From NCBI GenBank assembly GCA_010405405.1, contig MU004239.1, forward strand, positions 1,442,722 through 1,506,721: a stretch of DNA of 64,000 nt, written 5' to 3'. Positions 8,623 to 64,000 of this stretch are shown here, in pieces (the first letter of the stretch is position 1; each line of letters starts with the position of its first letter). The position numbers and the translations under genes are program-made. The stretch comes from Microthyrium microscopicum (lineage: Eukaryota). The notes below the pieces were generated by a model, which searched no databases, was not told the DNA's origin, and was given only the letters and a program-made list of their open reading frames with translations.

Positions 8623-9893
8623 CTGGCGAGCTCATATCGGGACGGCTTTCTCGACTATGGCATACAAGAACACTCGGGAGAAGGCGAACCTCTGGAATCA
8701 AACTCACCGAACGATCAACCTCCAGGTCAATCCTCTGTCGCCACCGGACATACTGGTCATACCCACTCTTCTTTCTTGCAGTTTGGATTGCCATCAGACA
8801 ATACTCCCGGCCAAAGTCAAAACCCGTTCTTGTCATCGACATCTCCTGTCGCGCCTGTCGCCAACGTCCAGCAGCAGCATGGTATGCAGGCTCATCATCA
8901 ACTAATGCAAGCAGGAGGCGTGGACGCAATGCGCCAGCCTCCATTGCTACGTCGCCCTCCACAGCAACATCAGCAACATCACATGGGACACCATCAATCG
9001 CCATATGGAACCCATCACTCTCACCTAGACTACAACCCACCCTCGCCCCACGGTCATTCTCGAAAGCGCTCCCGAGCCCGGAACGATCTTCATCTCGAAC
9101 TCCATGGTCTCTCGGGACTAGTGGACCCCAATGACCCTCATCAAGAAATGCCAGTGGAGCTTACTCCACATGGCCATCATGCGCAACCGCAATCGCTGTA
9201 CACACCACATACAGGGCCGCCGTCGTCGCAACTACCCCCTCCACAACATCACCATCACAGATTACCGAATCAACCACCACCATCAAAGATGAGGCGCATA
9301 GGTTATGACTCTCCTCCTCCTCAGCATCATGGTCCACCAAGCGTTGTAGGCCAAGAAGGCATGCCGCCGCCAGCACCTCGACCTCGAGGCCCGAAGCTCA
9401 AGTTCACCCCGGAAGACGATCAACTTCTGGTAGACCTGAAAGAGAAGAAGAATCTGACATGGAAGCAAATAGCAGACTTCTTCCCAGGACGAAGTTCAGG
9501 CACGCTCCAAGTGAGGTACTGTACAAAGCTCAAAGCCAAGACAACAGTATGGACCGAAGAAATGGTAAGTCTTCCAAGTCCACAAGCGTCGACAGATCGC
9601 AAGTTAACACCCAAAAGGTCCACAAGTTGCAAAATGCTATGCGCGAATACGAAACCGACCGATGGCGCATCATCTCCACCAAAGTCGGCAGCGGCTTCTC
9701 GCCCGCAGCATGCAAAGAAAAGGCCTCCGAGATAGCAGGCGACTCGGGAGACTTGGGGCTGCCGAACCCTGACACTGACAGACAAACAACCGGCGAAACG
9801 GCAGACGATTCCAACAGCTTCGTCGACCACAGGCTCAATGACGAATCTGCCTCGAGCGAAGTCAATGTCCCGACTGGTGTATCCTACCAATAG
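8623..9893 (+). CDS. Myb/SANT two-repeat DNA-binding protein with His/Pro/Gln-rich N-terminus; start uncertain (CTG 8623 or ATG 8884)
   Basis: KFTPEDDQLLVDLKEKKNLTWKQIADFFPGRSSGTLQVRY and WTEEM|VHKLQNAMREYETDRWRIIS; intron 9565-9617 (GTAAGT..GTTAAC..AAG) joins the two ORFs; stop 9891-9893. Confidence 0.85.
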
Positions 9894-12699
9894 ATCTTAC
9901 TCTGTCGAATTGTACGAACGTTAATGATTCTTGAACGATTACTTTTTGCCTTTTTGCCAAATGTCGCGACGAACATCTGCTACCAGTTTTCTTGCGATCT
10001 TTTGCCCTACGATGACACGAACGCGATGGTGGCTGTACGCTGATGAAAATCGTTGCGCGCGCGTTTCTGGTCCAATTGGGTGGCCTACAACGGGATGCAT
10101 AAACGAGCCAAGGAGTCGATATGCGGTGTTCTGACGTCAAATGTTTTGATTTATTGGCATGAGCGTCTTTGCGAATTGGGAGTGCTCACGGATGCTTTCG
10201 TTTGCATCCTCTCCACGAGGCTCCCGGGGGTATTTCCTAACGGCGACTTGAAACAATCCGGCATATCGGCTATGTCCCAAGGCTTCCGTAACTGGCGTTT
10301 TTCGGTACCTCTACTAGGAACAGATATTTAGCATCACCGGCTATTTCTGGAGAACGCATCGTTTAGATTCCTGTCGTTCGTTTGGTATCCCATTGTTCTG
10401 CTGCACGAAATGAAAACGTTTGATTTAGTCCTCGCGAGGACACTCCATCTCGGACATCGTCGCTCTCCGCATTCGCTACTGAGAACAGATGGTATTCGGT
10501 GTTCTGAAACTATTTCTTAACTGTCTGTTTACTGCATCTGTTTGCTGGATTAGGTACGGTTCGAGATATCCCTGTTATAATAGTCTATTAATCCAATGTT
10601 CTAACAAATGCTTCACGGACTTACAAATATTCTACTGACCCTCATGTAGGGGCACGCGTGAGTCTCGAACTAATTCCCTGGTCTCCAGATCTCAGATCTG
10701 CGGAATACCAGCACCTGTTTTCATGGAGATGACTTTTGTTTCATACCCAGCTCTTGCTGCATCTTGCATAACAAACCCTCATATATTCAAGTGTCAAAGC
10801 ATGCCGCTTTAGGTCAGCCTTGTAAGTAACCCCTTTAGGTATTGTTTCAGGGTCGACTGCATCGTGACATAATCATAAGGTTGGAGTTATAGGAGTGATG
10901 TTTGGACGCGAGATTGGAAAATGTGGGTGGCTGGGAAGCATGTCGCTCAGACGGAAACACGGGCATTTTCGACATCTACGCGTTATTAAAAACGCGTCTT
11001 TAGCTTGTCCTACCTTTAACTATATCATATAACCTCTTTCGCGATTGATGATAGCTCCACGGCAAACAAGCATAGCGCGTAGTATGATTATATTAATCGG
11101 GATTTGTAGGAGCTGTTACCCTTGATAGCAGATCGTCTCCTCCTACTTTATTATCTTTTGGATCCTACCAGCTACATACTAGTGAAAAGTGAGTAATGCT
11201 TAATTTACACTGGTTGTGGTAAAGCAGTCGATATTTTTTTTGTCATTTTCTAAGATATTAGGTAGTCGAGACTCATTCGAGAGCGGACTATTCAACGACG
11301 TGATTAAGGTATGTTTGTGAAGTTATCGTGCAGCCATGTCTACAGTCTGCCAGTGCTCTGAAAAGCTCAATGGGACAATTGGGATTCTTCTTAGCCATTA
11401 ACACGTTGTATAATACATGAGAGTTTAAGTTGAATCTGTGGATTCTAGAAGTTGAGAAATGTACTAGGTGCTTGACCAGTTACCCGGAAAGAGTTGTGAT
11501 ATAAGAAAGACAGGTTTATTTCGCCCCGAACTATCAATGATTTACCAATGATTCAGTCGCTTAATGCTCTGTGCAATGACAGTGCTTAACAAATACGAGA
11601 AGCAATATTTAGCTCTTTTATATCTATATTGGCTGGAATACGAAATCTGCGCTAGCTTTGGTAATCTTTGGATTGGTCTCTTATGGCGGTTCCAAATCAT
11701 AACCAATTCTATTGATTAGTCGTTTGTACGTCGATCTTCATCAATATACTAAGGTACTTCAGAAAACCTTCTCCCAATAGAGGACTCTTTCTATTTTCAA
11801 TCTTTTCATGATGACAGAATCTCTGAAATAAGAACATGAATCAATTGATTTGAGAGGCTCATTTTTGCCTCTGGAAAGCTGGCAACGGTATGGCAATATA
11901 AATGGCGACCTCCTATCGACTCTGATAGCTGCCACCAGTGCTGTTGATTCAAAGGTGCTATACTTCCCATTGTATTCGATCAAACTATCAAGTATGAAAC
12001 ACCTTCTTTGCAAACAGAGCACTTACTTAAAGATCGTAGCGTCTGGGAACCAACGAGGTTGATAGAGCGCGCCACGTATTTTGCTGACCTGTTGACTGTC
12101 ACCAATTTCGAATTTGGATAACCTAACCACAGCCAAGATACTACTGTTAATCGTTGCGCATATTTTCATTGCTACTGTGTCTCTAAGTAGTAAATAAGGC
12201 GTAAAATCGCTGTACTTGAGGATATTTTATTGAGCTAACATCTTGGTCGCTGAATCAAATTACTACGGGGTTGACAAGGGCCACAAGGCTGAACCTCAGC
12301 CTGATAGGTGGTTGCGAGAAGTAGCATTTGGTAGTTTCGACTTGGAAATGGGTACGACTTTGGTCTCACAATATCAGGCGAACATTCTCTTGTTATCATT
12401 GATCCAAATTCTCTTGTGGGTTTTCTCCAAGACCTGAATTCACATACAGTAAGCTTTTGGTGTAACAAAGCTATACCAAGAGTGACCAAGCATGTAAACA
12501 CTGCAAGTTTAGTCGTTTGCTCTCAGTAAAAACAGATTGCCCTGTGATCCAACCATCGCAAGCTATATCTATTCCTCTATTCTGCATTCTTGGAAGATTT
12601 ATTATCTACCGTTGGCAATATACTCCTTTCTGATAGCAAGTCAAGTGTCGTGACCTGACTACAGCGCTGATGCGGACTATCAGAACAGGCACTATCAGA

Positions 12700-14058: not shown

Positions 14059-16320
14059 CTACAATACGTGGATAGAAATAGGTGTAAATGTCTGATCAAG
14101 CGTGCGAGATTGAGAGACTCGAAGCATGCTCTTGGTACCAAGACTCAGCACATGAAGCAATCCCATAGCCGCAATTTGCCGATTATTGGTGGCAGGCGGC
14201 AGTAACTCTTCGAAGGTAATGTGGTCAATATCAACTTCCTCAGCACCAAGTTGAGCAGATCGTTGATTCTCATCGTTTTGCTTGTCAAGGATAGCCTGTT
14301 GCACATGGCCGAGGAAGTTGCGGCTGTCCTTGTCGAGAACAGAGTGTAGGAATGCAGAATCGTTTGCAGGGACTGGAAGGTCATTGGAGGTGGAAGTCAG
14401 ACCAGCAGGCATATCGTCTATATTCATGAATCCATCATCGTCTTCGATCGGTGGATGCATGGGGCGTCCAGGTAATGGTGAAGCACCCATCAGACGAGAG
14501 GCGCGGGATCTCAGTGCAGATTGCGGATACTCTGGTGGTAGTGAAGACCCGCGTAGCGAGGCTGAGATGTTCCATGGCATTGCGGAGGATGGGTCTTCAA
14601 GGTCTGCAGCGCCAATACGAGGAATTTCGATGTCATTATCTTGCATCATGGGCATATCATCTTCTTGTGGAGCTCCTCGAGCTTGCTCCATATTTTCAGT
14701 GCGAGCACGAACATTGCGTTCCGCCTCGGTAGGATCTGCCTCTGCGCGACGCTTTTCAGGAGTTGTTTGAAGACGAACACCGGTGATCATCTCGAACAGA
14801 GCAATGCCGCTGAACATTGAGGCAAGCGGGCTTTGGATGATGGATCCAAAGACTCCGTCAGTGATACTATTCAATCCGGAGCCTAGGATCCAATGTTCAG
14901 CATTCTTCTTGGCTTGCGTCGGCATTTTGTTGCGGAGATGAATTTTGGAGGCTTCCAGCATGTTGGCACCGTAGTTCAGCATTTGGTCTTTCAGAACATG
15001 AGTGCGGAATGAAGTTGCACGGTCGTACTGAATGGGTTTTCGCACTCTATTGCGCAGAGGAGCGTTAAATTCCTCTTCTTCAGTGACGGATTCGATGATA
15101 GCAGCCGAGCTGGTAGGTCCTCCGCCTGTTGGTGCGGAGAGGTCATCTGATGGAAGGGGCATGTCGTCTCCAATCATTGGAAGATCGAGGTCCATTTCGT
15201 CGCCGAACTACGAACAGTTAGAACGATTGAAAAGCAAAGTGGTGAGAAGTCTATGGCGGACTTCGATCCCCGAGCGTGGTCAATTCAAGAGCCAGTAGAG
15301 ACATACCTGGATATTCCCATCATTGAGAGCTTCTAGGTGCTCACGTCTAACCTGTGAGCTTGCTCGGTCACTGCGATTTAGTCCTTGCTGAGTCGTCGGT
15401 CGAGGAGTTTTTGGTTCGATTGTGATCTGTCATTTGTGAGCAGAAATATTTCAGGAGAATATCAAATTCAGTGCTAGAGAACATGGCAGAATGGTCGATG
15501 ATCGCCTCTCATAGTAAAATCAAGACAGACAGAATATAATGCATAAAGCAATTGGGAGACTCACCAGATTTCCATCATCACCAAACACGAAATCAGCATC
15601 CTGCAAGTACTGTTCATCCTCTTGACGACCCAGTGCGCTACTGCGGCCATGCATGCTAGTACCAAACTCATCATCGCCAGGGAGGCCAAAGCCGTCATGT
15701 CCGAGTGAGCTCGATGATGGAAGCAGCAAATGCTGAGAATCCCCTGTTTTGGTAAATCCCTGAGACGTGTGCAGTGAGCCATCATCGACAGCCCAATCGA
15801 TCTCAGTAGGCTGCGAGAGAAGACCAAGATCCATGAGAGGGATATTGAAATCCGGCAGATACATCTCATCCACAGGCAGAGTCAATTCCTCTGGTCTACA
15901 TCCTAAATTAGTCTCTCTACTAGCGTAAAAATAAAGCACTCACCGTGCGCGACTATCCACATCAAGTTTCGCGAGACGAACTGCATGAAGAACGCCCTTG
16001 AGACCATTCTGAACAGACTGGGCATCGGATAGAACATAGCCCGCTTGCTGGTAGTAGACACGCGTAATGCCATAGAGAAGATTGCTCTGGAGGCGTAGAG
16101 CAAGAGGCGCGTCAGGAGTGATAACGACGTTGCATGCGCGAGTGACGTTGACCTGTTCAATTGCCTTGCGAGAGATCTTTTTGCATGTGGAGCGCTGACC
16201 GAGCGTTGCGACGAGCCTGTGGATTGTTAGAGATGGCCGTTAAGGGATGACAGCAAAGACTTACCAGACGGTGGCGATGCCGTCCTTGCGCGAGGTCAGA
16301 ATCTCGTGAGAGTAGAACAT
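14059..16320 (-). CDS. rec8: Meiotic cohesin kleisin Rec8 (Rad21/Rec8 family), multi-exon
   Basis: N-terminus MFYSHEILTSRKDGIATVW|LVATLG..PMALRV(S/Q)-type region; C-terminal winged helix FEELLPPATNNRQIAAMGLLHVLSLGTK. Confidence 0.88.
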
Positions 16321-35402: not shown

Positions 35403-35980
35403 GAGCCCGTGAGGCATTGAAGATACGAATAGTACTGGGTCTTGGACAAAAAAGCCAATAAAGGTCTTATGGAAAGTACATACGTTGTATCAGGAAATGC
35501 TGTAGATTTTCTCGTCTTTAGAGAACGTAATATGAGGACAGTGCCAATCTGCTTCATTTCTTGGATGGCGATAGCAGCTATCATATCAAGTGAAAGGAGT
35601 CAATCAGTTTTTAAACGACCAGACTATCTTCCATATAAACCCAGAGAGGTGCAATGGTCTGAACAAGCGATACTTAAATAATTCCTAGAAAACATTGGCT
35701 GCTAAGACCAGCCCCTGCTCACTTCCATCATTTCATTCATTGTATAGTGAAATTTCAGTACTCCCGAGTTCGATATTGAAATTCATTTAAAAAACACACC
35801 TCATTGGACACATTCACATCTTACAACATTGCGCTTTATAGAATCACAGCAGCTAGCTATAACCGAACGGCTATCCCGTTGAAGTACTAAACTCTTAAAT
35901 GGCTTTAAGCATAGGGAATCCAGGCAAGCTCACGTTTGATGCGGGTGGAGAAACAAAAAATTCACTAAAACACAGCAAAA

Positions 35981-37031
35981 ATGGCACCCTCACCGCGCCA
36001 GCTGGTGTTACTTTCTTGTCTCGCAGCCATCTCCATGGCGGCCTGCCCGAGGCCGATTCTCCAGACCGCGTTGGACAATTTCATTCAAGTGGCAGAAAAG
36101 CCATCTGGAGCGTCACTAAAGCTGGCAGCTGGGGCAAAAATGACACAAAACAACAGCCCGATTACATCTTTTGATCAGTCGAAAATTGCCAAGTCATCGG
36201 GATTTGGCAAAGCCTTCAAAATCGATGTTCTAGATGAGGAAGCTTGCACCGTAGCAGTGATGCGAACTCCAAAGATAGATGGACAACTCGAATTGTTCAG
36301 TGCGCGTATTAAGGTTGCTCCAACGGGAGAAATCCAGGAGCTCGAATTATACAATGCCGGGAAGGGCTCTCATATGCTGTTCAAACCCGAAGGTCTACCA
36401 AACGAAGCGCCTGCATTATGGTCGTCCGACGCCCCTGCTACACATGAAAGCCTGGTGAAGATCATTGATTCTTACCCGGAAGGAATGGAAAAAGGAAATG
36501 GTAGCATCACGAAAGCATCTCCCACATGCAACCGCTTCGAGAACGGACAGGAAATGGGAGTCGGAGTTTGTAACAAGTTTCCGTTCGAATACCCTGTTGT
36601 GTACCGACGATACTATGCCGATACAAAGACTGGAGTCGGTCTTGGAGCCTTTTTGTTCAGCACGCTGAATGGTTCTAAAAGGAAAGCGATGGGATTCAAG
36701 GCACTTTGGCTTCAGTAAGCTTACCCCGTGCCAAATCGCATTTATTGAGAGGATTCAATTGAACCAAACAACAAATCTCTTACTGTTTTCGGTGGAAGCC
36801 ATAGCAATGGATCAGGAACGCATTGCATGGCAGCCATCGAGGGCGATGAGAGATGCACCATTTCACCGCGAAAAGGCGAAACGGTCTTTTCAGGGGTGCT
36901 AAGTCCAATCGTAATTCACACTGACAAGTTCTAGTGAGTACTTCAAAGTAGAGAAGGGACAGATTGCAATGATCGCCGCGGTGATGAACAACGTCGAAGA
37001 TAACTTCAAAGATGTATGGAGCCCTGCCTAA
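35981..37031 (+). CDS. Secreted protein of unknown function
   Basis: Signal peptide, then ACPRPILQ; intron 36715-36934 gives WLH|EYFKVEKGQIAMIAAVM..DVWSPA*. Confidence 0.75.
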
Positions 37032-37735: not shown

Positions 37736-38028
37736 ATGCAATTCAAGACCTCTCTCTTCAGCCTTCTGGCTCTCGTGAGCTTCACTTCTATCAGCTTTGC
37801 CTCTCCCGTGGCAAATCCATCGCCGCAAGTTGGAGGAACATGCTTTGACGACGGTGACTGCATTCTCGTGAGTCCAAAGGTTTATCTGGCATCGATCGAT
37901 ACTGTGCTAACTCTCAGATAGAGCGGTAATGCTTGCAAAAAGGCTGCTGATAGTATTCTTGGGTGAGTAGCTAGAAGTGACCTATATACTTCTGAGCGAC
38001 CACTAACCAAGTCAGCTCATGCGGTTGA
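37736..38028 (+). CDS. Small secreted 4-Cys peptide (61 aa, 3 exons)
   Basis: Introns 37868-37921 and 37963-38015 (GTGAGT..CTAAC..AG); product MQFKTSLFSLLALVSFTSISFASPVANPSPQVGGTCFDDGDCILSGNACKKAADSILGSCG. Confidence 0.78.
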
Positions 38029-38491
38029 GCATATAGCAAGTTTCTTTTCATCTGTTGGAAACCTGGGGGAGGATCATTCAGATTGAGGTCGAGACTGTAC
38101 ATACAATGAATTCGTGACTTACTGAAAAGTTTCGTTCGCTGTGCTTTTGCCGTTGTTAGTCCCGCTAGTCATCTCATATATTTGACAGCCACAAGGAAGC
38201 TAAAGACCGTAAGTTAGTGTTACTTTGTGAAACGGATTATATACCATCGTCAGAGCAATCAGACTGGGAAGTATGAACAGGAGTCGTATTTGTACAAGGG
38301 TATCAAAAGGCTGGATATGGAAAATTCCCATCATGGAACCACGGAAAACACACTCAACATCACCCTTATCAACCTTTTCCTGATAACTCGCGATCTCTAT
38401 GTATGTATGTAATCAATAAATCCACTCCGCCCGATGAATAGCATTAGGCTGTTTCCGCCGTAAGCATCAAGAACAATTAAAGCTACCCCAA

Positions 38492-41400
38492 CTATCTAGC
38501 GAAACCACGCCCGCGGCCCGATGGCTTGCGGACTCGATCCGCCATGGTGGAGGCTCCTCGAACGCTAGTACCCGAACCTCTAGTTGGCGCATTAGAAAAA
38601 GACCATGTTGGAGAGGGCAGTGTTGCATTGTTGGAATTGTCAGATGTAGTTACCTCTGAAATAGATGTCGCTGGACTCGTTGAAGGTTGAGCTGAATTTG
38701 TCTCGCTCGCTGTTTTGGTTGCGGTGTGAGTCTTCTTTCCGAAGCGGCTTTTCTTCGAAGTAAGCGTGAAACCTTCGACTCTAGTGGATGCGGACTCTGC
38801 TGGAAGATTCCCGCTAGATATTTTAGGAGAATCACTGGGGCGTTGGAAAATACTGGATCCTCCTAGTGGTTGAGAGTATGCGTGGGCCAGCTGTGTAGAA
38901 TCGTCTGTTTGTTGAGAAGGGGGAAATACTTGCTGCGGAGGATGAGTTGCTCGCTGAGTAGTAGAAATAGCATGGTGATCTTGGATGGGGAACTCTGGCG
39001 AGGCTTCCGTGCTTTGGCGAATATTAAGTCCTCGTGGCTGGGAAGAGACCTCGATGACCGGTCGATTATTGTTTGCTTGCTGAGGAGGTTGAACCACTTG
39101 CTGCGAAGTCTGGATTGCTCGCCGAGCAGACGAAACGGTCGTTTGATCTCCATTAGGCACATTTGGAGAAGCTTCAGCGCGATGGCGAACATTTGCTGGC
39201 TGAGAAGCGTGACCAATTTGCTGTGGAGCGTAGGCTGCTTGCGGAGTCGAAGGATTGCCCACACGTTGAGGTTGATCATTAGAAGGTCGTTGATTGAAAG
39301 CTTCAGTCAATCGCTGATCCAGAGTACCAAGATCGTGGGATCCTCCAGAATTGGTTGATTGACCAACTGTGATACGATTTTCTTTTAACGGACCGCGATC
39401 TGATGGTAGCTGTGCATGGCTCTCTGTACGACTCTCCGGACGTGAAACAGGATAACGCTCAGGATTCTGCTCTGGACGGCCAATAGGGGTCCTGTTAACT
39501 CCAGTAACCGGGTTACGTCTTGCGTCACGAGGCCCTCTACGGGGAGTACGCTTAAACTCCCGATCTGGTATGAGTTAGCTTAGGCCTCTCTCATGATAGG
39601 TACTTTGAAAGACATTGGCTATCAAGATAGACAAAATAATTGGTGTGCTCCATCGACTTCGATGCCTCCCACATGGGACGCTCTAGTATTGAGTGCGTTT
39701 GGTCCCATAAAGGGCGTTTAGATCGGCCAAATTCATCAAATGTAATGGCAAATATAGCACCTTCTGTTTAGTAGCGTTCGTGGGAGCCATCGAAGTGGAT
39801 GAGAGCGCGCCATCATTTTCACTATCGGTTTTGTGACTATCACCAAAGCTATGCTCTGATATTGTGAAGTTCCTAAGACACTGACGTTGCCAGCCCTCGG
39901 CAAAAAGGACATTGTACGGGGTTTACTTACTAGCTCTATAATTAGGGGGAGGCTCTATCTCCTCAAAAGAAGGCGAACGGGCGGGTTGCGGCGGTCCACG
40001 ACCACCCGAGAACGACGAGCGTGGCATATTTGGAGCTTGAGGTCGGTCATAGGCACGACGGTATGAAGCTTCTACTGGTCTACGAGAACCAGAACCAGTG
40101 CGGTTGGCGGAAAACGTATTGTCGCGCGGTCCTACCACTTCCGCATCTGAACGGGCTAGTTCGAGAGCTTCATACAGGGAAAGTGAACGCTCTGAGCCAT
40201 TCGAGTTCTGGGCACGACCTGAGTCATTACAACCGTTTGAAAGTCTCTCCTCTACTCGTGTATGGTCCATTTGAACTGATCGAGGTGCTCCGTGGTTACT
40301 ATCGCGATTATACTGACGATCATCGCGATGATGCAAGCCATGAGCGCTGGAGACATTGGATCGTTGAGAAGCTCCGGAAGGAACCTGAACGTCGTCAATT
40401 ATGCGAAATCTGACCACCGCAGAATTGGTTGACAGGACGCAGTGTAACTCATTTCCCTTGACTTCACTCCACTTCGCACGACGTTGGTAATCCGCAACCT
40501 GCGATCTCCTTATCGACGGTACGGCCTCGGAAAGTGACTGCGGACGCGAGACATCACGGAAAACTGCTGGCGAGTACTGCTGGGTAGCTTGTACGGATGC
40601 CGTCCCTGCCTGCACCTGACCAGGAGGCAGAGAAGCCGACAGAATGTTGGCAGAAGCAACTGGTTTGGCTGGAACATATTGGCTAGAGTTGGCTATCCCA
40701 TGCTGCTGCGGTTGGGCCGAAGCTTTTCTAGAAGCAAGTTGTCCTGGAGGGAATGGCACTGTGTCCGGTGCTTTGTCTACAGCAAGCTGCTCAGAACCTT
40801 TAAGCTTTGGCTGAGGGAGTCCTTGCGAAATCGTTGCCATCATCTCATCTCGCACAACGTTCATGTAGCCTGGAGTTGGCTTGACACTATCGCCACCGGA
40901 AGAGTCAGACGAATCCTCGGCAGCCGCGATTGCTTGTCTGGAGAGTGCTTGCACAGAAGCTGAGGATGTTGATTGAGCCACAGAGGCTGTCGTTACTGGA
41001 GGTGGGGTCGTAGAAATGGGTGATGAGACTATCAACGGCAATGTATTGGGTTTTGGAGATTTGGAAATCTGGAATTTGTTAGCTTTTAGCCTCATGCAAC
41101 AATCAAATCATCCCAGGCTACTTCAGTGTAGGGTTTATGCCACCTGAATGAATCGCTTGCCAATTGATGGATGAGCCCGCATGGTGCTGCTTTGGGTCAT
41201 AATAAGTGAGCCGAATCGACGAATATTCCCATCGATTACGTTGTCGGCCATAACACTTAATAAACAGTGACTGCTTCAATTACCATCGTATCGTCTGTTG
41301 TAAGTTTTGCGTGGTTGATGGGAATTGAAGCTGCTGCTCTTTAAGAAGTGTTATGGTAGCCATCGTGGTCTATGGACCCCATCCAAACGGCTCACTTATT

Positions 41401-44400
41401 TTGTCCCTGGAGATATTGCAAAAGTAGGGGCCACTTACAATTTGAGGATGCGATGGGCCAGCGGCTACTACTGGACTGGCAACTTCATTGACTTCTGGAG
41501 TGAAATATCCAGGCAGTCTTCTCGCAGACTGAGTAAACAATGCTATCTGTTCTCGCTGCAGTGCTGCCGGATTTTGCGGGTGGAAACCGAAGACTCCATG
41601 CCTCGAGGAAGAATGTTGCATAACAACTTCAGACTGGTGTTCAGGCGGTAGTCGACCGATCAGGTATTGTTGCTGTTCAGCCCAGGTATGCTGCCCCATG
41701 AAAACCTGTCCTGATGGTTCTTGTTCCGGTGGTCGAAGGCGTGTCATCTGCGTGATCGAAAACCAATCACCGAGTTGCGCGAACTTGATCATCGCATCGA
41801 GCTTCTGCTGATGTTCAGCCGTTAATGGAGGAGGTTTCTTTTCAGCTCGCCAATCATCTGCATCGTGCAAGCTAGTAATAAGTGGCTTGAGGCGATGTAT
41901 TTCTACAAGGCCATCCAAGATGGCATCTTTTCCGTCTAGGTGCATAGCCGCTCCTTCTAGCATTGGAGCGAAAGCAGTTGGATGCTTCAGGTATCTTTGA
42001 GCAGTCACAGAGACTCGGTTCCGCCAGTGCTTTTGCTCTAGAACTTGACCCGTAAGCTGAATTTTGCGAGTGCATTGATTCAGCAGCTGCTCCTCGAAGG
42101 TTCCTTCAGTCGCAAAGCGATAGACAAACACCGGCTTCTCTTGCCCAAGGCGATAGGCTCGACCAATGGCTTGTTCTTCGACCTGCGGATCCCAGCCAAA
42201 ATCGTAGATGATTACACGATTTGCGCCGAATATATTGAGACCGGTTCCACCTGCTTTTGTAGAAATCAAAAGGACCGAGCTTGCACCACTGTTGAAATTT
42301 TCGATCAGCTGGGGCCGGGCTTGAGCTGCGACGTTGCCATTGATCTTTTCATGCTTTATGTTTCGTTCTCGAAGTACAGCGGAGAGATATTCGATAGTTT
42401 CTAGACTCTGTGTAAAGCATAGCGTTTTGTCCCCCTGGGCCTGGAGGTGGTCAGTGTAAGATTACAATCAGAGCTAACACGCCCAAAAGACCCTTCGGTC
42501 TTTTCGCGATAAACAAGTAAAACACTTCTTGCATTGAATGGCGCCCATAGCACTCGAATAGTGAAAGCCTTCTATGGGAACCATCAAATGTGATGGGAGA
42601 TGTGAGGTTTCTTGGTTGTGTTGAATTCCCGAGGAACACAACAGCCATTGTCTTTCAGGGTCAATACATAAACCGCCGCACCTCCCATCACATCCAATGG
42701 CATCAATAGTACTCGACTGACGAACACATCTTATGGTAGCCATCGAGTACGATGAGATATGCAATGCTGGTATTGAGTTGTATGTCGTCAAGAAATGTAA
42801 TTTAGCAAGGGAGAATCTTACCATAGAGTGGTTGACAATGTGTAGGAAACACATTGTCTTGTTGGAGTGAATAACATCGCGCTGTGCAGCTTTTTCAATC
42901 AGGTCGTTGACTTCAGAATCTTCGAGGCCAGGGAACTGTTAGAGTGTATTAGTTTGAAGTCAGCCACCAATGCAACAAGTCATAACTCACACTAGGCCGT
43001 TCTGCAGGCTTCTTGCCCTCCCGAAGAATCATATGAGAACTGAATATAGCTGGGTGATTGAGAATCCAGGTAAGGACTGGACCATGAGTTAATACATCGC
43101 CAATCTGTAGCAGCTTTCGGGCCTTAATGGTTTCGAGAAGATCAAGGTATGCGGAATAGACCTCGACCTGAAGTTGCGTTAACTGGATGTTGATTATGAA
43201 TTCCTGTTTTGGAGGTAAGTGTCCCTTAGAAAATGTTAGCTCAGAGTGCCATCAAGTTGAAAATTTCCCATCAGGTACTATGGCAGCATGGCCATCATTT
43301 CTCGGGTTCGAGATAATCTTGCAAACGGAATGAGAACATGATGTCAATGTCGTCAGAGAGTTGATAGGGATGTATTCACGCGAGGAAGTCTTACCTTGAG
43401 TACCGAGGCGTCCTTTCGATGAACCTTTGGTTTGAGCACTTGCTCCAGCGCTTCCAAAGTCAATCTAGCTTCGGTTTCTTCGTATTCGGCGCAGTCGGGA
43501 TTGCTTCCAAGTAAGATGGGTGTTTCAAAGATGGTCTTGAATTCCCGTAAGTTTCCAAGGTAACCTGGAGAAACAAGATCGATCATCGAAAAGTACTCTA
43601 GGAGGTGATTAGAGAGTGGAGTGCCAGTAAGTGCCACTCTTCGCTTGGTTTCGATTTTGCATACGGCTGTGCGAGCCTGCGTGGTGGTCTTTTTCACAGT
43701 ATGAGCTTCGTCGAAGATGACCAGATTGCTCTTGGTCAACAGAAACTGTCGCGTCAGTTGCGTCGCAGGGACCAATACATCATCGAGTGTATCGTCTTCA
43801 AGGTCGGGTGTAGTGCTATTGACCATCGGGACTGAGTTGTTTAACATGCCTTGAGATGGACTTTTGGTCAAGTTGGTGAACATGGTGTATCCAATGATCA
43901 GAACACCACCGTTGGTGCCCCAGTCTTCAATGAAGTGGTCTCGGTATTGGTCTCCAGCTTCAATGCAGTAGATTCTACCCAAGATTTGGGTAGACCGCTT
44001 GGGGAGCCATTTCACGAATTCAGCGTCCCAGTTGCGTATCAAGCTTGGCGGACATACTACCAACGTACGGGACTGTTGAAGCGCTGCCGGGATTTGATCA
44101 CGAATTCCTGGATCTCGGGATCGTATAGCCTCTTGTATTGTAACGAGGAGGGTGATAGCCTGCATGGTCTTCCCAAGGCCCATAGTGTGCGACAAAAGAC
44201 AGCCAGATGCCATAGATTCATCAGGCTGAGCGACAATCTCACGCCAGAGGAACTGCAAGCCTGATATCTGATGATCCTTGAGTTCAGCTGCAGCATGTTC
44301 ATTCACGTAAATATATTCCTGGCCATCCTCTTTTCCAGGGTTGATAACAATTGCGCTGGTCGATCTTATTTCCTGCGAATTCATCTCTGCCCGATATTCA

Positions 44401-46276
44401 GTTTCCTCCAAACGACGCAACGCTTGTGCCTGCGTCTTATTCTTTTTCATCGGTCTGGAGAGATCTTCTGTTGCCTTGCGTTTCTCTGTCTGATCTTGCT
44501 CTGAAGATGCTTCTTTGACAACCGGAAGTGAAGATCCCAAGTCGGGTATTTCTATTTCTGAGCTTTCATTGTCCGAGCTAGTCTCCGATGTTTCGCTTTC
44601 TGAATCGCTAATCGTGAGGTCGATTACCTCAATAGGTGGTTTGCTAAGAGATTTCAAGGCCAAGCTAGCAGGGTCGGGACTTGGAGAACGATCTCGCATG
44701 GTGATGTCTTCATCTTCGACGTCAGATGAGTTGATCATTGTGTATTCTGGTTCATCTGGCACTGCCATGTCTCGATCAGGAGTGTTTGATGCAGATGGCA
44801 TGGTGCTGTTATGCTTTGAGCCATGTGGAAGATCTTCAAGCTCTGTGGTCGGCTGTACGATCGCTGGCGTAAATGGCTCGGTTTCCTTCTGGGGATCAGC
44901 GTCTTCGGATTCTGCCTCTGATTCAGTATCAAGTAGCTCTCCCTCGGAGTCATCATCGCCGCCAGTGTGTTTTCGAGCGGGTTTTGGCTTCCGCTTTGGA
45001 GCTTCGACTTGAGGAGGTGGAAGTATTTGCTGAAGAATGTCTAGTTCAAAAGATAGTTTCTGGATGTCAAAAACAGTAGCCTCCAAGACACCACACTGCT
45101 GCCGTAGCTTCTTCTCATTTCTTCCAGTGGTACCGTCGATAAGATCTTCTCGAATTCTGACAAGTCTGGATTGGAGAGATTTCACTTGCTGACAACGAAT
45201 TTCGCAGGCCACATCACGCTCCAATTGACGCCGAAAACCGGTGTAGAGTTTTAGGGCGTTCGACTTCTGAATAGGTAGGCGTCGTGAGGTCCAGATGCTC
45301 TTGAGCTTCTGGATCTCGTCATCCACAATAAAAGTCGCATCAAACGGAGGCAGGGTTTCTGGCTCGATCTCTTCTTCTTCTTCTAATTCTCGCGCAAAGT
45401 TGCTGCTTGTGTCTGATGAGGCGTCCTCTTCGTACTCGGGTATATTCACGTCATGAATGATCGGGTCAACATGGTGTCGGCTGAAATTGACGGTGCTTAT
45501 TTCTCGACGTATGGTGTCCCAGCTATCGAGAAGTCTTCTATAGCCTTGACGAAGATCTATGTGCGATCTTTCTGGATTGTGTAAGGCAAATTCCTAGCAT
45601 TTATTAGTATTGTATCACCAAATCAAAAGTGACGGTTGTGAGCAACGGCATGGCAGAATAAATGGCCTACTCCCATACACGCTAATGGCTTCCACCCCCT
45701 CTATTCCTTAGCGGGTGCTTTATTGCCATTGTCTACGATTAGATGTCAAGTTTTGAACGTCTTCTATGGCAAAGAAAGCACTCGATAGCCCAGCGAAACG
45801 CATGGTAGCCATCGTAGTGGATGGGAGCGCGCCATTTATTTTGCAATGCGGTTGGTGATCTCGATTAGGAAAAGGGTTGGGATGCAGATACATACCTCAA
45901 TGGATTCGCCATCCGACGAAGCACCGTCAGAGGCATCGATCTCAGATAAGTCAGGACTTTCGAAGCCTGGCTGTCGAACAATATGCTCCGTAGAAGCGAT
46001 TGGCTGCAAAATTGCTCGACGCTGGGAAGACTTGGCAGCAACTTGGGGGGAAAACTTGGCAGCAACTTGAGTAAATAGCTTAGCATGACCAGCTACGCAC
46101 AATTGCGGATCTTTTTGACAGGCAGCAAGAAGAGTGGAGGTTATCTGGCCATCTTTAGGCAAAGTTCTTGCCGTAATTAGGCCAACAATTGCTGGTACTG
46201 CAGTGTTGGAAAGCCAGGGAAAGAGAACGCCCGAAGCCCAGTCGTTTGGGTCATGAGATATGCCGCCTTCTTCCAT
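38492..46276 (-). CDS. SNF2-family ATPase of the ATRX/Rad54-like group, probably the SAD-6/ATRX orthologue; 7 exons
   Basis: GCLLSHTMGLGKTMQ, DEAH, ALTGTPLSN, STKAGGTGLN, QAIGRAYRLGQ. Introns 45594-45895, 43225-43394, ~42937-42990, 42441-42821, 41069-41438 and 39565-39930 join the listed ORFs. Confidence 0.87.
39623..39831. mobile_element. Fold-back (MITE-like) element, full-length copy in an SNF2 intron
   Basis: Arms TGGTGTGCTC-CATCGACTTCGATGCCTCCCAC and GTGGGAGCCATCGAAGTGGATG-AGAGCGCGCCA; strongly similar to the 59636 copy. Confidence 0.8.
41194..41407. mobile_element. Fold-back (MITE-like) element in an SNF2 intron
   Basis: Perfect 13-bp stem AATAAGTGAGCCG 41201-41213/CGGCTCACTTATT 41388-41400; inner CCATAACACTT/AAGTGTTATGG; right end TTATTTTGTCC shared with the family. 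Confidence 0.78.
42525..42760. mobile_element. Compound fold-back element with four arm motifs in an SNF2 intron
   Basis: 12-bp stem ATGTGATGGGAG/CTCCCATCACAT; CCATCaaatgtGATGG, CCATCacatccAATGG and TATGGTAGCCATCgagtacGATGA motifs. Confidence 0.7.
45643..45854. mobile_element. Fold-back (MITE-like) element, full-length copy in the first SNF2 intron
   Basis: GCAGAATAAATGGC..CTCCCA..ATGGCT pairs with AGCCAT..TGGGAG..GCCATTTATTTTGC; inner CGGGTGCTTT/AAAGCACTCG; ends CAACGG..CGGTTG; 212 bp. Confidence 0.8.
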
Positions 46277-47521
46277 GATATGGCGTGCGGATACTCGAGG
46301 GTTGTGTTGTGTTGTTGAGTCGTTTCGTCAGCTTCAAATCTAAATGATGGGTTGTTATATTTCCCTAGGAATGAAGCTTATTGGAGAAGAAGTAAAAAGT
46401 CGAATAACAGAGGTAAGAGAATGTGTGTAGTTGCAGGGACTGGGAGAGGTAGAGGCACCGACTGGCAGGCAGTGTACTATGTTGCCTGGAGCAAGGAGGC
46501 CAGCAGATATATAGTACCTCAGTTGCTCCAGTCGAGGGTCCAGTGAAAGCGGAGCGAGGTCAGAAGCTGAGTTGGCTCATGTAGTGAAATAAATCAATTT
46601 AAGATACGTGAAAGTTCAGGGCTTGAGAGATGCTGATGATCAGTGTTGAGGTTGAGGATGGATAAACAGAGGTACAAGACGCGTCCAGATCCATGCGGGG
46701 AGTTTTGACGCGGTGGGAGAAGGTAACGCGGCGTGTAAACAAGCATGGAGAATAGCTTGAGGTCGTTCTTGCCAGAAGATGGTGATTTGGCCTGCGAGTT
46801 CTGGGCATCTGGCAGTCACAGATGAAGAACAGTCCATAATAGGTTAAGGCCGCCTAGACTATGAAGAAGTCGCGACTCTGGCCTCTATATGAACATGTAC
46901 AAATGCCTAGATGCTTCTTAAGACGAAGAAGCGGACTATGAATTGTAATTGTCCGCTATTCAATGTTCAAGAATCAGAGCACGAGTATTCGGGATTGATA
47001 GTATGGTTTTTGTTCAGCTGCTGCTCCATTTGCCGTACTTCTATCATTCCAAGCTCTTTTCCAATTCTGTTGTTCGGGGCAGTCGATAACCTGTCGAAGC
47101 AACAGTAGTATGGCTCCAGAGAATTGTTGTACAATAGATATTGGTCTCCTCAACAGGGATAAGACTCTCGTCTCAACGGCGGCGAAGTAGGGATGACTGC
47201 AGACTGGCGCTTGGACTTGCAGTTGCATATGGATGTGGTCGATATCAAAATGGACGCCACTAAAATCGTGGCTGCATTTTTCGGCAGGCGCTATGAATTC
47301 GGCCCGACCCAGCTCCTTCCTCCGTATGTAGGTAAATCGTTACCGACTCGGCCGTTCCTTCTTCATCCAGCAGTTGCTCCTGCTTCATTGTTTTCAGCGA
47401 GCACTTGCCATTTCCAACACTGTGTAAAATATCAAAAGACACAAACAACAACAAACCAACACCTCAATAATTCCTTCAAACGTCGAATTCAGATGTTTTC
47501 CACCTGTAATTTTTCAGAGGT

Positions 47522-59162: not shown

Positions 59163-59635
59163 GTTTGCGGAACAAATGAGTGTGTTGGTTGAAATTGGCG
59201 ATAGCTATTTCGACATCCTGTAGGAGGAGGTACGCAATTGGATCTATATAGCACTCGGGAAGTCCGACTGTGTTGGAGTCCAGATGACATTGTTAAAGCC
59301 TAGCTGTGGTTAAGCCAATAGATGGCAGCAGAGGGAAGAGCCGGTTTCCAGATAAGAAGAAGGCCACGAAGTAGGTGCTAGAGGTATATTAATTATGACT
59401 TTCGTTATATACCATATTGGTGACCAGGGTTTGGATTCCGATTGAAGATCCGGACTAGATCGACACTGAACGTTCGTCGATGGAGATGGTATCATCTATT
59501 TGAAACATATAAAGCTGCAATTCCTGGCACAGCTCGAAAATGGACAAATTACTGTCTACAGCGATCCTACTTTTTGAATTATCTGAGTTGAGTGATTAAT
59601 GATGCAAGTGGACGTCTATGATTGCTTTGGAATAT

Positions 59636-59848
59636 CAACCGAAGGACAAAATAACTGGCGTGCCCCCATCGACTTCTATGGCTCCCATCTGCTACGCTTT
59701 ATTATCGAGTGCTTTATTTCCTAAGGACTACGTTTATTCTACCACTATTGATCGATTATGATGGGAGTTATGGTATTTGCTGTTTAGAAGCGTTGGTGGG
59801 AGCCATTGGAGTTGATGAGAGCACGCCAGTTATTTTGTCCACCGGTTG
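59636..59848. mobile_element. Fold-back (MITE-like) element, best-preserved copy, intergenic
   Basis: Perfect 20-bp inverted repeat GGACAAAATAACTGGCGTGC 59644-59663/59821-59840; ends CAACCG/CGGTTG; 213 bp. Confidence 0.85.
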
Positions 59849-60120
59849 GCATATGCAATATGACACAAAACTGAACCCAGGAGGTTCTGATAAACTTGAA
59901 GGTGAAGGCTGGAAATATTTGACATCACAAAGCGAACGTTTTCAAAGCAAGGACTTGAGCGTCCAAAAATAGTAAGCGTCTATAAACTACCATCTGTTTC
60001 AAATACTTTCGGAGTCTGTATTTCGTTCAGGTATGGATTGTATTGTGTTTTCAGACATCTAATTCCTTCTCACATTCTCGATCCACAAACATAAAGCATT
60101 CAACTGTACTTTCTGGAATC

Positions 60121-61210: not shown

Positions 61211-61358
61211 ATCGAATGCGCTGGTAGTCATCGAATGCGCTGGTAGTCATCGAATGCGCTGGTAGTCGTCGAATGCGCTGGTAGTCATCGAATGCGCTGG
61301 TAGTCGTCGAATGCGCTGGTAGTCATCGAATGCGCTGGTAGTCATCGAATGTGCTAGT
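61211..61358. repeat. 19-bp tandem minisatellite, 7 full units plus 1 partial
   Basis: Unit RTCGAATGCGCTGGTAGTC at 61211, 61230, 61249, 61268, 61287, 61306, 61325 and 61344 (partial). Confidence 0.95.
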
Positions 61359-61692
61359 GAATGGAAACATGACGGCAAAATAAAATAGGTGCTTCAATGG
61401 AGTGCCAAGATCCCCCATGACCACAATCTTCGATGAGTGTTTTGTTTACCCGATGGCGTTTAGGCTTGCTTGGGTTGTTTGTTGAAATTAGGAGGATGAG
61501 AACAACCTCGTCTATACAGAAGCAGTAGTAGTAACCACCGCCATGGATAGGAACATTCCATTTGTTCTAACAGTCATTGAGATAGTCATTCGATATTGAA
61601 ATGCAATGGAAAACCGAAGAAAACATGTTATTATATACTTCGCCTAACTAAGTGCCGAACACTTTGATAGCTATGATACATGTATGACACTG

Positions 61693-64000
61693 CTAGACGC
61701 ATTGCGCTCCCGTGAAGATGCCCAACTGGATGAAAATATAGGGGCTGTTATTAACAGTGTTTGAAGTTTGCGACAAGGTTGTGCTGCTAAAAGTGAACGA
61801 CCCAAATTTATACAATGTAGATGTAGCAGTACATTGGAGCGTGTTGTCTGCTGCGATAGCGCAATGCTCTACCGGATATGTTGCAGCTGCTACAGCGAGG
61901 GTGGCCGCAGAATACGATCTTAAAACTTGAGTCGGGGAGGTTGCTGTGGCAAGGGCGACTATGAGACCTGCGGTAATACCTCCAGCAGTGACCAATTGCC
62001 CGGAGGAATTGATGGTGAAGAGAACGACTGGGCGTGAGGTAGTACCGGAGGTTTGGAAGTTGAGGTTCGTGCCCATGCCGGTGCCTGTCACTACTTGGTT
62101 TGAAGTTGCTAGATTTGGGGTGACTAACATTGGAGATTAGAGTCAGAAGGATTGAGGTTATGAGATAGAAGGATTTCACTAACTGTTTTTGAGACAGAAG
62201 GTCGGTTGCGCCGCAGCGGAGCTGGAAGTCGATGAAGAAACCGCAGATGAGGAGGAAGAGGAAGATGGAGATGAAGGTGCTGACGTTGTAATCGTAGATA
62301 GGGTTGATGTGATAGAGGAAGCTGCAACCGAAGAAGACGATGAGTCGGTAGACGAAGACACTATAGAACTGGTGGGGGAGCTGCTTGATGAGACCGCGGA
62401 GCTGGTGACCAAGCTAGATACGTCGGAGGAGCTGGGGACAGCGCTGGAAGAACTCGAAGAACTTGGAGCACTGGAGGAGCTGGCAACATCACTGGAAGAA
62501 CTGGAGGAGCTGGAGGAGCTGCTAGAGGAGGCTGTGCTGGTTGCCGAGCTAGAACTGTCGGGAGACGATACAGTGGAAGAAACATCAGAAGATGAAGTGG
62601 TGCTTGCGATTGAAGAGGTCTCGGTGGATGATATTGCGGAAGTATTGGAGGAGCTGCTGGCGGTCGCGGAACTGGTAGCTGGCGAAGAGACCTCAGAGCT
62701 GGTTGCTAAGCTTGATTCGGTGGAGCTGCTCGTCGAAAAGACTTCGGAGCTGCTAGCTGGTGAAGCTGGTGAAGAAGCGGAGCTGCTGGTTGATGAAGAA
62801 GCCGCCAAGCTGGATGAGCTGGCAGAACATATCGGGGCCAACACCTGGTCTGTTTGAGATGTTGTATCGGTGCAGCTGACATCCCCAGCCTGATAATCTT
62901 TGTGGAAGACGTAGCAATCCTTCAAGTCGGTAAAATAGGTTACAAAACAAGAAGTCAAGGTGCCGCACTCCGCTTCACATTCTGCTTCTGAGCCGCCTAC
63001 GACTACATCCCATAGTGAGTTACTGGCAGTGTTTGAAAAAACACAGTTAGAACCGTGATAGACTTGGCTGAAGGCGCAGCTTGGAGATGAGGAGGCTGAA
63101 GTCGTAGTAGAACTTGTCGAGGATGACGATGAAGAAGATGACACGCTTGATGTAGAGTCAGCAATCGTGGAGCTACTGGACGAAGTTGTATCTGATGCAA
63201 CGCTGCTTGAGAAACTTATTGTGCTTGAAGAGCTTGTTATGCTTGATGGGATTTCTGAGGAGCTCATTGTGCTTGAAGAAATACTGGACGAAGTTATTGT
63301 GCTCGACGCGACGTCGCTAGATACCGAACTGCTGGCCAAAGAAACCGCAAAGCTGCTAGAAGAAGATGAGGCATCGGAGCTGGCTGCGGAGCTTGATAGG
63401 GTAGAACTACTAGGGAATGATGAGATATCGGAGCTGGTGGCGGAGCTTGATGTAGCAGAGCTTGATGTAGCAGAGCTTGATACAGCAGAGCTTAGTATAG
63501 CAGAGCTTGATATAGCAGACGAAGAGACATCGGAGCTCGTTGCAGAACTTGAAAACGTGGAACTGCTAGCTGTGTTTGGTATAGTAGCACTGCTGGCTGA
63601 CGAAGAATCAGAGCTGCTGGCAGATGATGAGACATCGGAGCTCGTTGTAGAACTTGATATTACACTACTGCTGGCTGACGAGGAACCAGTGCTGCTGGCA
63701 GATGATGAGACATCGGAGCTCGTTGCGGAACTTGATATCACACTACTGCTGGCTGACGAAGAATCAGAGCTGGTGGCAGATGATGAGACATCGGAGCTCA
63801 TCGCGGAGCTTGACATAACAGTACTGCTGGCTGACGAAGGATCAGAGCTGCTACCGGAGCTGGAAATAGCGTAGCTAAAGGTACTGGCGGAGGACGATGC
63901 TGAAGACAATATGGTGCTTGAAGACTGCGAGGAAGTCGCTGTCGTTGAAACAGAAGGACTGGCCGAGGATGAAGCAGATGAGCTCAGAGATGAAACAGTA
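61693..64000 (-). CDS. Ser-rich mucin-like extracellular protein with an internal Cys-rich (PAN/apple-like) module and C-terminal globular domain; 5' end beyond the window
   Basis: Ser/Ala/Thr repeats (SSDVSSSA..); CEAECGTLTSC..CYVFH module; intron 62124-62183 (GTTAGT..CTGAC..TAG) joins to the 61693 exon. Confidence 0.8.

Follow-up and report, generated by a model that had tools for sequence, protein, structure and literature searches.

Hairpins in the long introns of an ATRX/SAD-6-like gene of Microthyrium microscopicum belong to a dispersed and probably transposon-derived element family

Why should the pre-mRNA of a single fungal gene carry several long and mutually related hairpins within its introns? 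The question is raised by a stretch of 64,000 nucleotides (nt) of contig MU004239.1 of Microthyrium microscopicum (GenBank assembly GCA_010405405.1), hereafter the window, in which the minus strand encodes a putative ATRX/SAD-6-like protein of the SNF2 family. An earlier note on this DNA had described long hairpins in the introns of the gene and had offered two explanations, a feedback loop in which a silencing factor is tuned by double-stranded RNA (dsRNA) stems in its own transcript, and, as a fallback, a tolerated insertion hotspot. Here we report that four of these hairpins are members of an element family with further copies outside the gene, and that they are probably independent, tolerated insertions resembling miniature inverted-repeat transposable elements (MITEs), which leave with the intron and pair with themselves.

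To place introns 1 to 5, the annotated protein (P0003) was threaded onto the DNA with GT..AG junctions; a sixth intron is a candidate. The gene and its introns are listed below, with element copies (i1, i4, i5 and i6) numbered after the introns that carry them and with amino acid (aa) positions referring to P0003.

39923..46276, minus strand: ATRX/SAD-6-like SNF2 gene as annotated, encoding P0003 (1691 aa); located by tblastn, exact GT..AG threading and Pfam; exons 46276-45896, 45593-43395, 43224-42991, 42935-42822, 42440-41439 and 41068-39923
45594..45895, minus strand: intron 1, 302 nt, GTATGT...ACTAAT...TAG; carries copy i1, bordered by 35 and 43 nt of unique sequence
43225..43394, minus strand: intron 2, 170 nt; no element-family member detected
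42936..42990, minus strand: intron 3, 55 nt; an ordinary short intron
42441..42821, minus strand: intron 4, 381 nt, at aa 976; carries diverged copy i4, bordered by 56 and 70 nt of unique sequence
41069..41438, minus strand: intron 5, 370 nt; carries diverged copy i5, bordered by 25 and 125 nt of unique sequence
39565..39930, minus strand: candidate intron 6, 366 nt, GTAAGT...GCTAAC...CAG; carries copy i6; absent from the public gene model

Of the five long introns of 170-381 nt described earlier, threading recovered four, of 302, 170, 381 and 370 nt, in addition to a short intron of 55 nt. The total of six introns stands for the five that are in the public model, with matching sizes, and the sixth (39930-39565) is not part of that model. 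Few cases bear on the further statement that most introns here measure 50-60 nt, as the unverified candidates outside the gene are of 48, 55, 80, 90, 132, 160 and 357 nt.

Each hairpin fold was compared with 200 dinucleotide shuffles. The four long hairpins of the earlier note all folded far beyond shuffles, none of which was as good: 39623-39831 (i6; -79.0 kcal/mol, z -8.0), 41194-41407 (i5; -82.5 kcal/mol, z -8.3), 42525-42760 (i4; -83.8 kcal/mol, z -4.6) and 45643-45854 (i1; -84.7 kcal/mol, z -5.5). Their stems are retained when the whole introns are folded. All four contain the proposed common motif TGG(T/G)AGCCATCG-N5-(G/T)ATG, and the window holds 13 occurrences of the 12-mer TGGKAGCCATCG (at most one mismatch) where 0.45 would be expected, a count reached in none of 100 shuffles. 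A more degenerate fifth hairpin had been proposed in intron 2 (43265-43370) and was rejected: its fold of -25.1 kcal/mol (z -1.7) is matched by 15 of 200 shuffles, it gives no match to the family profile described below or in blastn searches, and it lies in an intron whose whole fold is at the shuffle level. No Rfam family matched positions 38000-47000 of the window at E up to 1. Structure was ordinary in three longer, unverified candidate introns outside the gene, which measure 357, 160 and 132 nt (z +1.7, -0.5 and -1.1). The longest of them, 15208-15564 (GTGAGT...TCTAAC...TAG), lies in an acidic, low-complexity coding region and shows neither a hairpin nor a family match; if it is real, long introns here are therefore not all due to the hairpin element.

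That the hairpins are not a feature of the introns themselves became apparent when a family profile, built from four copies, was run over the 64-kb window with nhmmer, alongside blastn. The family members detected in and outside the gene, and the minisatellite next to one of them, are as follows.

45637..45860: copy i1, in intron 1; nhmmer E 1e-62; well preserved, arms 45643-45694 and 45803-45854, 77% complementary
42511..42765: copy i4, in intron 4; nhmmer E 9e-6 and weaker; a diverged, compound hairpin with family-like sequence recognisable over only about 70 nt per arm
41194..41413 (profile match 41207-41413): copy i5, in intron 5; nhmmer E 1e-9; diverged, arms 41229-41287 and 41317-41375, outer stem 41194-41213 and 41388-41407
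39616..39838: copy i6, in candidate intron 6; nhmmer E 1e-58; well preserved; contains the annotated start codon of the neighbouring protein P0123
11877..12094: full copy outside the gene, in an open reading frame (ORF)-poor, apparently intergenic stretch; nhmmer E 2e-59; decayed hairpin, z -2.0
59630..59853: full copy outside the gene, in an ORF-poor stretch; nhmmer E 2e-63
36780..36860: one-arm fragment, just downstream of ORF 35969-36718; nhmmer E 5e-6
61415..61587: weak family match beside a 19-nt minisatellite; nhmmer E 0.04
61211..61355: the minisatellite, 7.6 copies, 96% match, unit ATCGAATGCGCTGGTAGTC, carrying the motif variant TGGTAGTCATCG

The element is about 205-255 nt long and is a nearly full-length palindrome, with inverted-repeat arms of 52-59 nt that are 75-87% complementary. 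For the four best copies, a consensus structure comprises 49 pairs running inward from CAAC...GTTG, and five of these pairs show compensatory change. The element is non-coding and too short for a transposase gene; overlapping ORFs are only chance ones of up to 79 codons. A survey of hairpins throughout the window found that all long ones belong to this family, those of an AT-rich block at the left end excepted. In size, lack of transposase coding room, inverted repeats extending to a near full palindrome and the presence of diverged copies both in introns and between genes, the family resembles MITE and foldback elements, of which mimp is a fungal MITE example. Judged from these features, the best reading is that it is a MITE or foldback-type non-autonomous DNA transposon of Microthyrium microscopicum. 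The literature on this species together with introners or transposable elements yielded nothing on the family, which appears to be undescribed so far although of a kind already known.

Two observations concern individual family members. Relative to the consensus, most differences seen by eye in the copy at 11877-12094 are C-to-T or G-to-A and fall in CA/TG contexts (such as CCATCG to CTATCG and GATGGC to GATAGC), a pattern that would fit mutation resembling repeat-induced point mutation (RIP). The unit of the minisatellite at 61211-61355 holds a one-base variant of the element motif, and this array may have grown from an element arm.

The intergenic copies also provide the reference against which the intronic folds can be judged. 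With 52-nt arms that are 87% complementary, the hairpin at 59636-59848 reaches -94.3 kcal/mol (z -12.7) and folds better than every intronic copy, so that the hairpins cannot be called the introns' own feature. Because the intronic folds fall between this best and the decayed intergenic copy, there is no sign of a structure specially kept in introns. This bears directly on the proposal of regulatory dsRNA feedback, according to which intronic hairpins are kept for dicing, or for control of splicing or retention, and tie the remodeler to RNA interference (RNAi) or transposon activity. Such a proposal can point to four imperfect stems in one pre-mRNA, each of about 50-100 base pairs and persisting in whole-intron folds, and to small RNAs that are produced from MITE-derived hairpins in other organisms, as far as the available parts of the literature describe them. 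Against it, intronic copies are preserved no better than one of the intergenic copies, and the compensatory pairs come from a set that includes two intergenic copies and are expected for transposon end pairs. We regard this explanation as very unlikely, and further evidence on it is given below with the kinship of the copies, the relatives of the gene and its identity.

Hairpin ends lie 25-125 nt away from the splice sites, and the sequence in between is unique: when ten intron pieces (the eight hairpin-flanking pieces of introns 1, 4, 5 and 6 and the whole of introns 2 and 3) and four flanks of intergenic copies were compared, only chance matches of 11-17 nt (E 0.047 or worse) were found, mutually or within the window. 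What repeats is the hairpin alone, and the splice sites are outside the element. A mobile unit consisting of the whole intron is ruled out by these unique flanks.

The same evidence has to be set against introner-type intron gain, the explanation in which hairpin elements, or segments carrying them, made introns in what had been coding sequence, while introns 2 and 3, short and free of hairpins, would be older, decayed products of the process. There are genuine likenesses to introners: the host is a Dothideomycete, the introns are long with stable predicted structure, and at least one element-bearing intron (aa 976) is at a position where orthologues have none. Introner-like elements are known in Dothideomycetes and are said to degenerate fast into ordinary introns, according to the available portion of Collemare 2015 (PMC4457414). 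The defining introner feature fails here, because the introner unit is the intron or provides its splice sites and only the hairpin repeats in this gene; the repeat is internal, neither including nor abutting the splice sites, which sit in unique, unrelated sequence 25-125 nt outside it. Copies are found outside genes as well, four family matches lying outside this one (two full, one partial and one weak). Two genome screens, so far as their accessible text and tables go, count no introners or introner families in this assembly (Gozashti 2022, PMC9860276; 2025 PNAS, PMC12130899), although copies that are 65-77% alike may have been missed by the pipelines of those screens. Taken with the comparison of relatives below, intron gain of this type seems to us unlikely.

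A second fungal system invites comparison. The internally symmetrical introns and stwintrons of Hypoxylaceae are likewise fungal introns with inverted repeats, there of 45-55 nt, which can form a double-stranded intron RNA and have multiplied in a genome, as set out in the portion of Fekete 2021 (PMC8469720) that was available. They differ, by the same account, in that their repeats are terminal, the whole intron is repeated and integration is seamless and without duplications, whereas here the hairpin lies 25-125 nt inside unique sequence.

The kinship of the copies indicates how they came to be in one gene. The closest relative of i6 is the copy at 59630 (score 182) and that of i1 is the copy at 11877 (score 145), while i6 and i1 score 100 against each other; i4 and i5 are weakly related to all copies, each other included. 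Because the copies in the gene are not mutual closest relatives, they represent separate insertions that differ in age. Intragenic duplication, or a local hop from one founder, is ruled out on the same grounds. Copies of differing age and sublineage fit accumulation and not a designed set, which counts further against dsRNA feedback.

We therefore return to independent, tolerated insertion and outline how it would operate. At least four copies, of different sublineages and ages, would have entered introns of this ATRX/SAD-6-like gene in separate events, with one landing in the candidate intron that public annotation treats as a gene boundary. An intron would be one of the few harmless places for 200 extra bases in a compact fungal gene, and copies would persist there because they are spliced out together with the intron. 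A self-paired copy would probably fold clear of the splice signals; as to the distance from donor to branch point, shuffled introns give paths as short as those in the structured ones. The data show that the hairpins belong to one family, that this family is dispersed, that the copies are independent and that their flanks are unique; the passivity of the tolerance and the effect of folding on splicing are what we infer. Of the two explanations that the earlier note had offered, the evidence favours the fallback of a tolerated insertion hotspot, with the qualification that the family is dispersed and also intergenic; the feedback loop, as a hypothesis, drew no support from the computed evidence. 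Insertions of this MITE-like kind would account for the unusually long introns of the gene.

Several observations weigh against this explanation. Target-site duplication is a defining feature of MITEs and is weakly suggested here: three of six copies have a direct word of 4 nt lying no more than 8 nt from their ends, a result equalled by 234 of 5000 random sets, with ends that are uncertain by a few nt. No autonomous partner element with matching ends was seen in the 64-kb window, the family is assigned here to no superfamily and, in a further departure from MITEs, half of the window's copies are in one gene. Even with the element removed, the introns would still be of 78-150 nt, longer than short introns elsewhere. 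The remaining points, the clustering of the copies and the absence of intron positions from relatives, require a fuller account.

To assess clustering, coding sequence was mapped crudely as stop-to-stop ORFs with a minimum of 100 or 150 codons, which left 24.5-34 kb of non-coding sequence. The introns minus their elements offer a residual target of 722 nt, and the probability that at least four of six to eight family members would fall into it is about 3e-6 to 5e-5 if insertion is uniform on non-coding sequence. With the whole gene span, exons included, as target, the probability is about 1e-3 to 4e-3. Both values are post hoc and from one window, and both assume uniform insertion, which transposons do not obey. 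No family copy was present in candidate introns of other genes in the window. The clustering is statistically unusual, and passive tolerance alone is insufficient to account for it; target preference, weaker selection on the introns of this gene, a link with intron origin, or function may be among its causes. It is also a point for two of the competing explanations: the excess over uniform-insertion expectation counts for dsRNA feedback, and the figures become less extreme under intron gain, in which exons count as targets.

A further possibility is that the ATRX/SAD-6 gene is a preferred or selected landing site, with insertions that sense RNAi or transposon activity or that were favoured for weakening silencing. 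In one form, the pre-mRNA or the palindromic DNA may link how much remodeler is made to RNAi or to the activity of the transposon; in another, the insertions may have weakened repeat silencing and so hitch-hiked when the element spread in bursts. In a weaker version, hairpin-bearing segments may have seeded the lineage-specific introns of the gene. We consider a landing site of this sort a highly doubtful proposition. Should the clustering prove exceptional genome-wide, the gene would offer a natural test case for feedback between transposons and their host through a silencing factor.

The comparison with relatives drew on 76 metagenome loci (875 kb) that encode relatives of the protein. Twelve fungal-looking loci (33-46% identity, long spans) were compared with the gene; the remaining 64 are distant SNF2 genes and served only as search space for the family profile. 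The nearest named proteins of the twelve are from Sordariomycetes, Eurotiomycetes, Lecanoromycetes and Dothideomycetes. Since introns 1, 5 and 6 lie in regions that cannot be aligned to relatives, the comparison covers introns 2-4. A single tblastn high-scoring segment pair (HSP) spans P0003 aa 860-976, which includes the sites of these three introns, in 11 of the 12 loci, and the twelfth, L007, is in one frame throughout in the residue-level alignment. The intron positions compared (aa 860, 938 and 976) are absent from relatives. In residue-level alignments, six of six loci read through aa 860 (VLK|G) and all five that reach aa 976 read through it, with no residues missing at either position, so that the introns are seamless. 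Some HSP translations contain one to four stops elsewhere; that of locus L008 falls in a probable small intron of its own, about nine residues upstream of the intron 2 site. Intron positions thus appear, from these alignments, to turn over in the gene family.

Nor do the relatives carry the element. No inverted repeat with arms of at least 24 nt within 260 nt was found in any of the twelve loci, and the family profile had no match below E 0.1 in the 76 loci (875 kb). As far as these loci indicate, the hairpins are lineage-specific, and so are at least three introns of the ATRX-like gene (2, 3 and 4). The earlier note had named hairpins missing from orthologous introns among the findings that would speak against its feedback loop, and relatives were found to lack both the hairpins (0 of 12 loci) and introns 2-4. 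Since introns 2-4 are absent from relatives, intron origin and element insertion could be linked, and this absence, together with the seamless introns at aa 860 and 976, speaks for introner-type gain; set against this, introns 2 and 3 are equally lineage-specific and yet free of the element.

A side observation on the relatives concerns a region that is intronless in the Microthyrium gene. Near P0003 aa 597-613, an HSP break accompanied by a frame change occurs in three loci (L008 at about 9527-9580, L010 at about 6731-6799 and L012 at about 9884-9896).

What kind of gene has received these elements matters for their interpretation. P0003, a protein of Microthyrium microscopicum, matches a 746-residue exon translation at 100% and is named in its source as a hypothetical protein/SNF2 family helicase of 1691 aa. 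Pfam recognises SNF2-rel_dom (PF00176, E 1e-38), DUF7607 and Helicase_C (PF00271, E 6e-23), that is, a SNF2 ATPase core composed of an SNF2-related N lobe and Helicase_C. A protein search returned about 100 fungal proteins of equal architecture first, followed by plant CHR20/ATRX and animal ATRX/ARIP4 proteins, these non-fungal matches having E values of 5e-37 to 6e-28. No N. crassa protein is among the 120 matches listed for P0003, and its precomputed Pfam list is without the ADD-type domain of animal ATRX. [quoted passage not shown] These also present it as needed for silencing of perturbed chromatin by small interfering RNA (siRNA) and heterochromatin, and for one RIP pathway. The proposed assignment of the host gene to SAD-6 depends on N. 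crassa having a single ATRX orthologue, and the shared SNF2 ATPase core and the ATRX, CHR20 and ARIP4 matches outside fungi are the likenesses on which it builds. Naming the gene ATRX/SAD-6-type is reasonable, and the identity suggested earlier is upheld, at the level of sequence, by the SNF2, DUF7607 and Helicase_C domains and the ATRX-type best non-fungal matches.

This identity is what makes dsRNA feedback attractive, N. crassa SAD-6 being tied, in the available text of those sources, to siRNA production, decaying mobile elements and RIP. The absence of the hairpins from the genes of 12 relatives stands on the other side. The main text of the SAD-6 preprint (bioRxiv 10.64898/2026.08.11.744009), as available, contains neither 'intron' nor 'hairpin', and the available text of PMC11295056 does not contain 'hairpin' ('intron' was not searched there). 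On the reading that we prefer, independent and tolerated insertion, four separate insertions would have come to lie in one gene, the Neurospora counterpart of which polices repeats.

One of the insertions has a consequence for annotation. Candidate intron 6 emerged from a scan for consensus splice signals plus ORFs; it is in phase 1, with 392 and 356 open codons on either side, and is in frame with a downstream 357-codon ORF in which the first Met comes only close to the end. P0003 terminates at a TAA within the perfect GTAAGTAA donor of this intron. The sequence beyond it is

38492..39564, minus strand: downstream low-complexity ORF, either exon 7 of the ATRX-like gene or the main part of P0123

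and in the public annotation this ORF belongs to a separate 377-aa protein, P0123, with its ATG at 39674. That ATG and the first 20 residues of P0123 lie inside hairpin element i6, and are followed by a weak GTCTTT donor that uses the same acceptor, 39565. The C-terminal tail that candidate exon 7 would encode is not conserved in the 120 homologues listed. On splice-signal grounds, a fused gene model of about 2048 aa seems to us more likely than the split into P0003 and P0123. An annotation problem is probable in either case: the ATRX-like protein would be about 357 residues longer, or the start codon of its neighbour would have been called inside a transposon.

Two further features lie away from the gene. 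Between 1300 and 6000 of the window is an AT-rich block with many AT-rich inverted repeats, its GC of 0.29-0.38 comparing with about 0.47 elsewhere, which looks like a decayed, possibly RIP-mutated repeat region. At the right end, 63440-63852 holds tandem arrays nested in one another, whose periods are 15, 45 and 78 nt, the 78-nt unit being present in 3.4 copies at 90% match.

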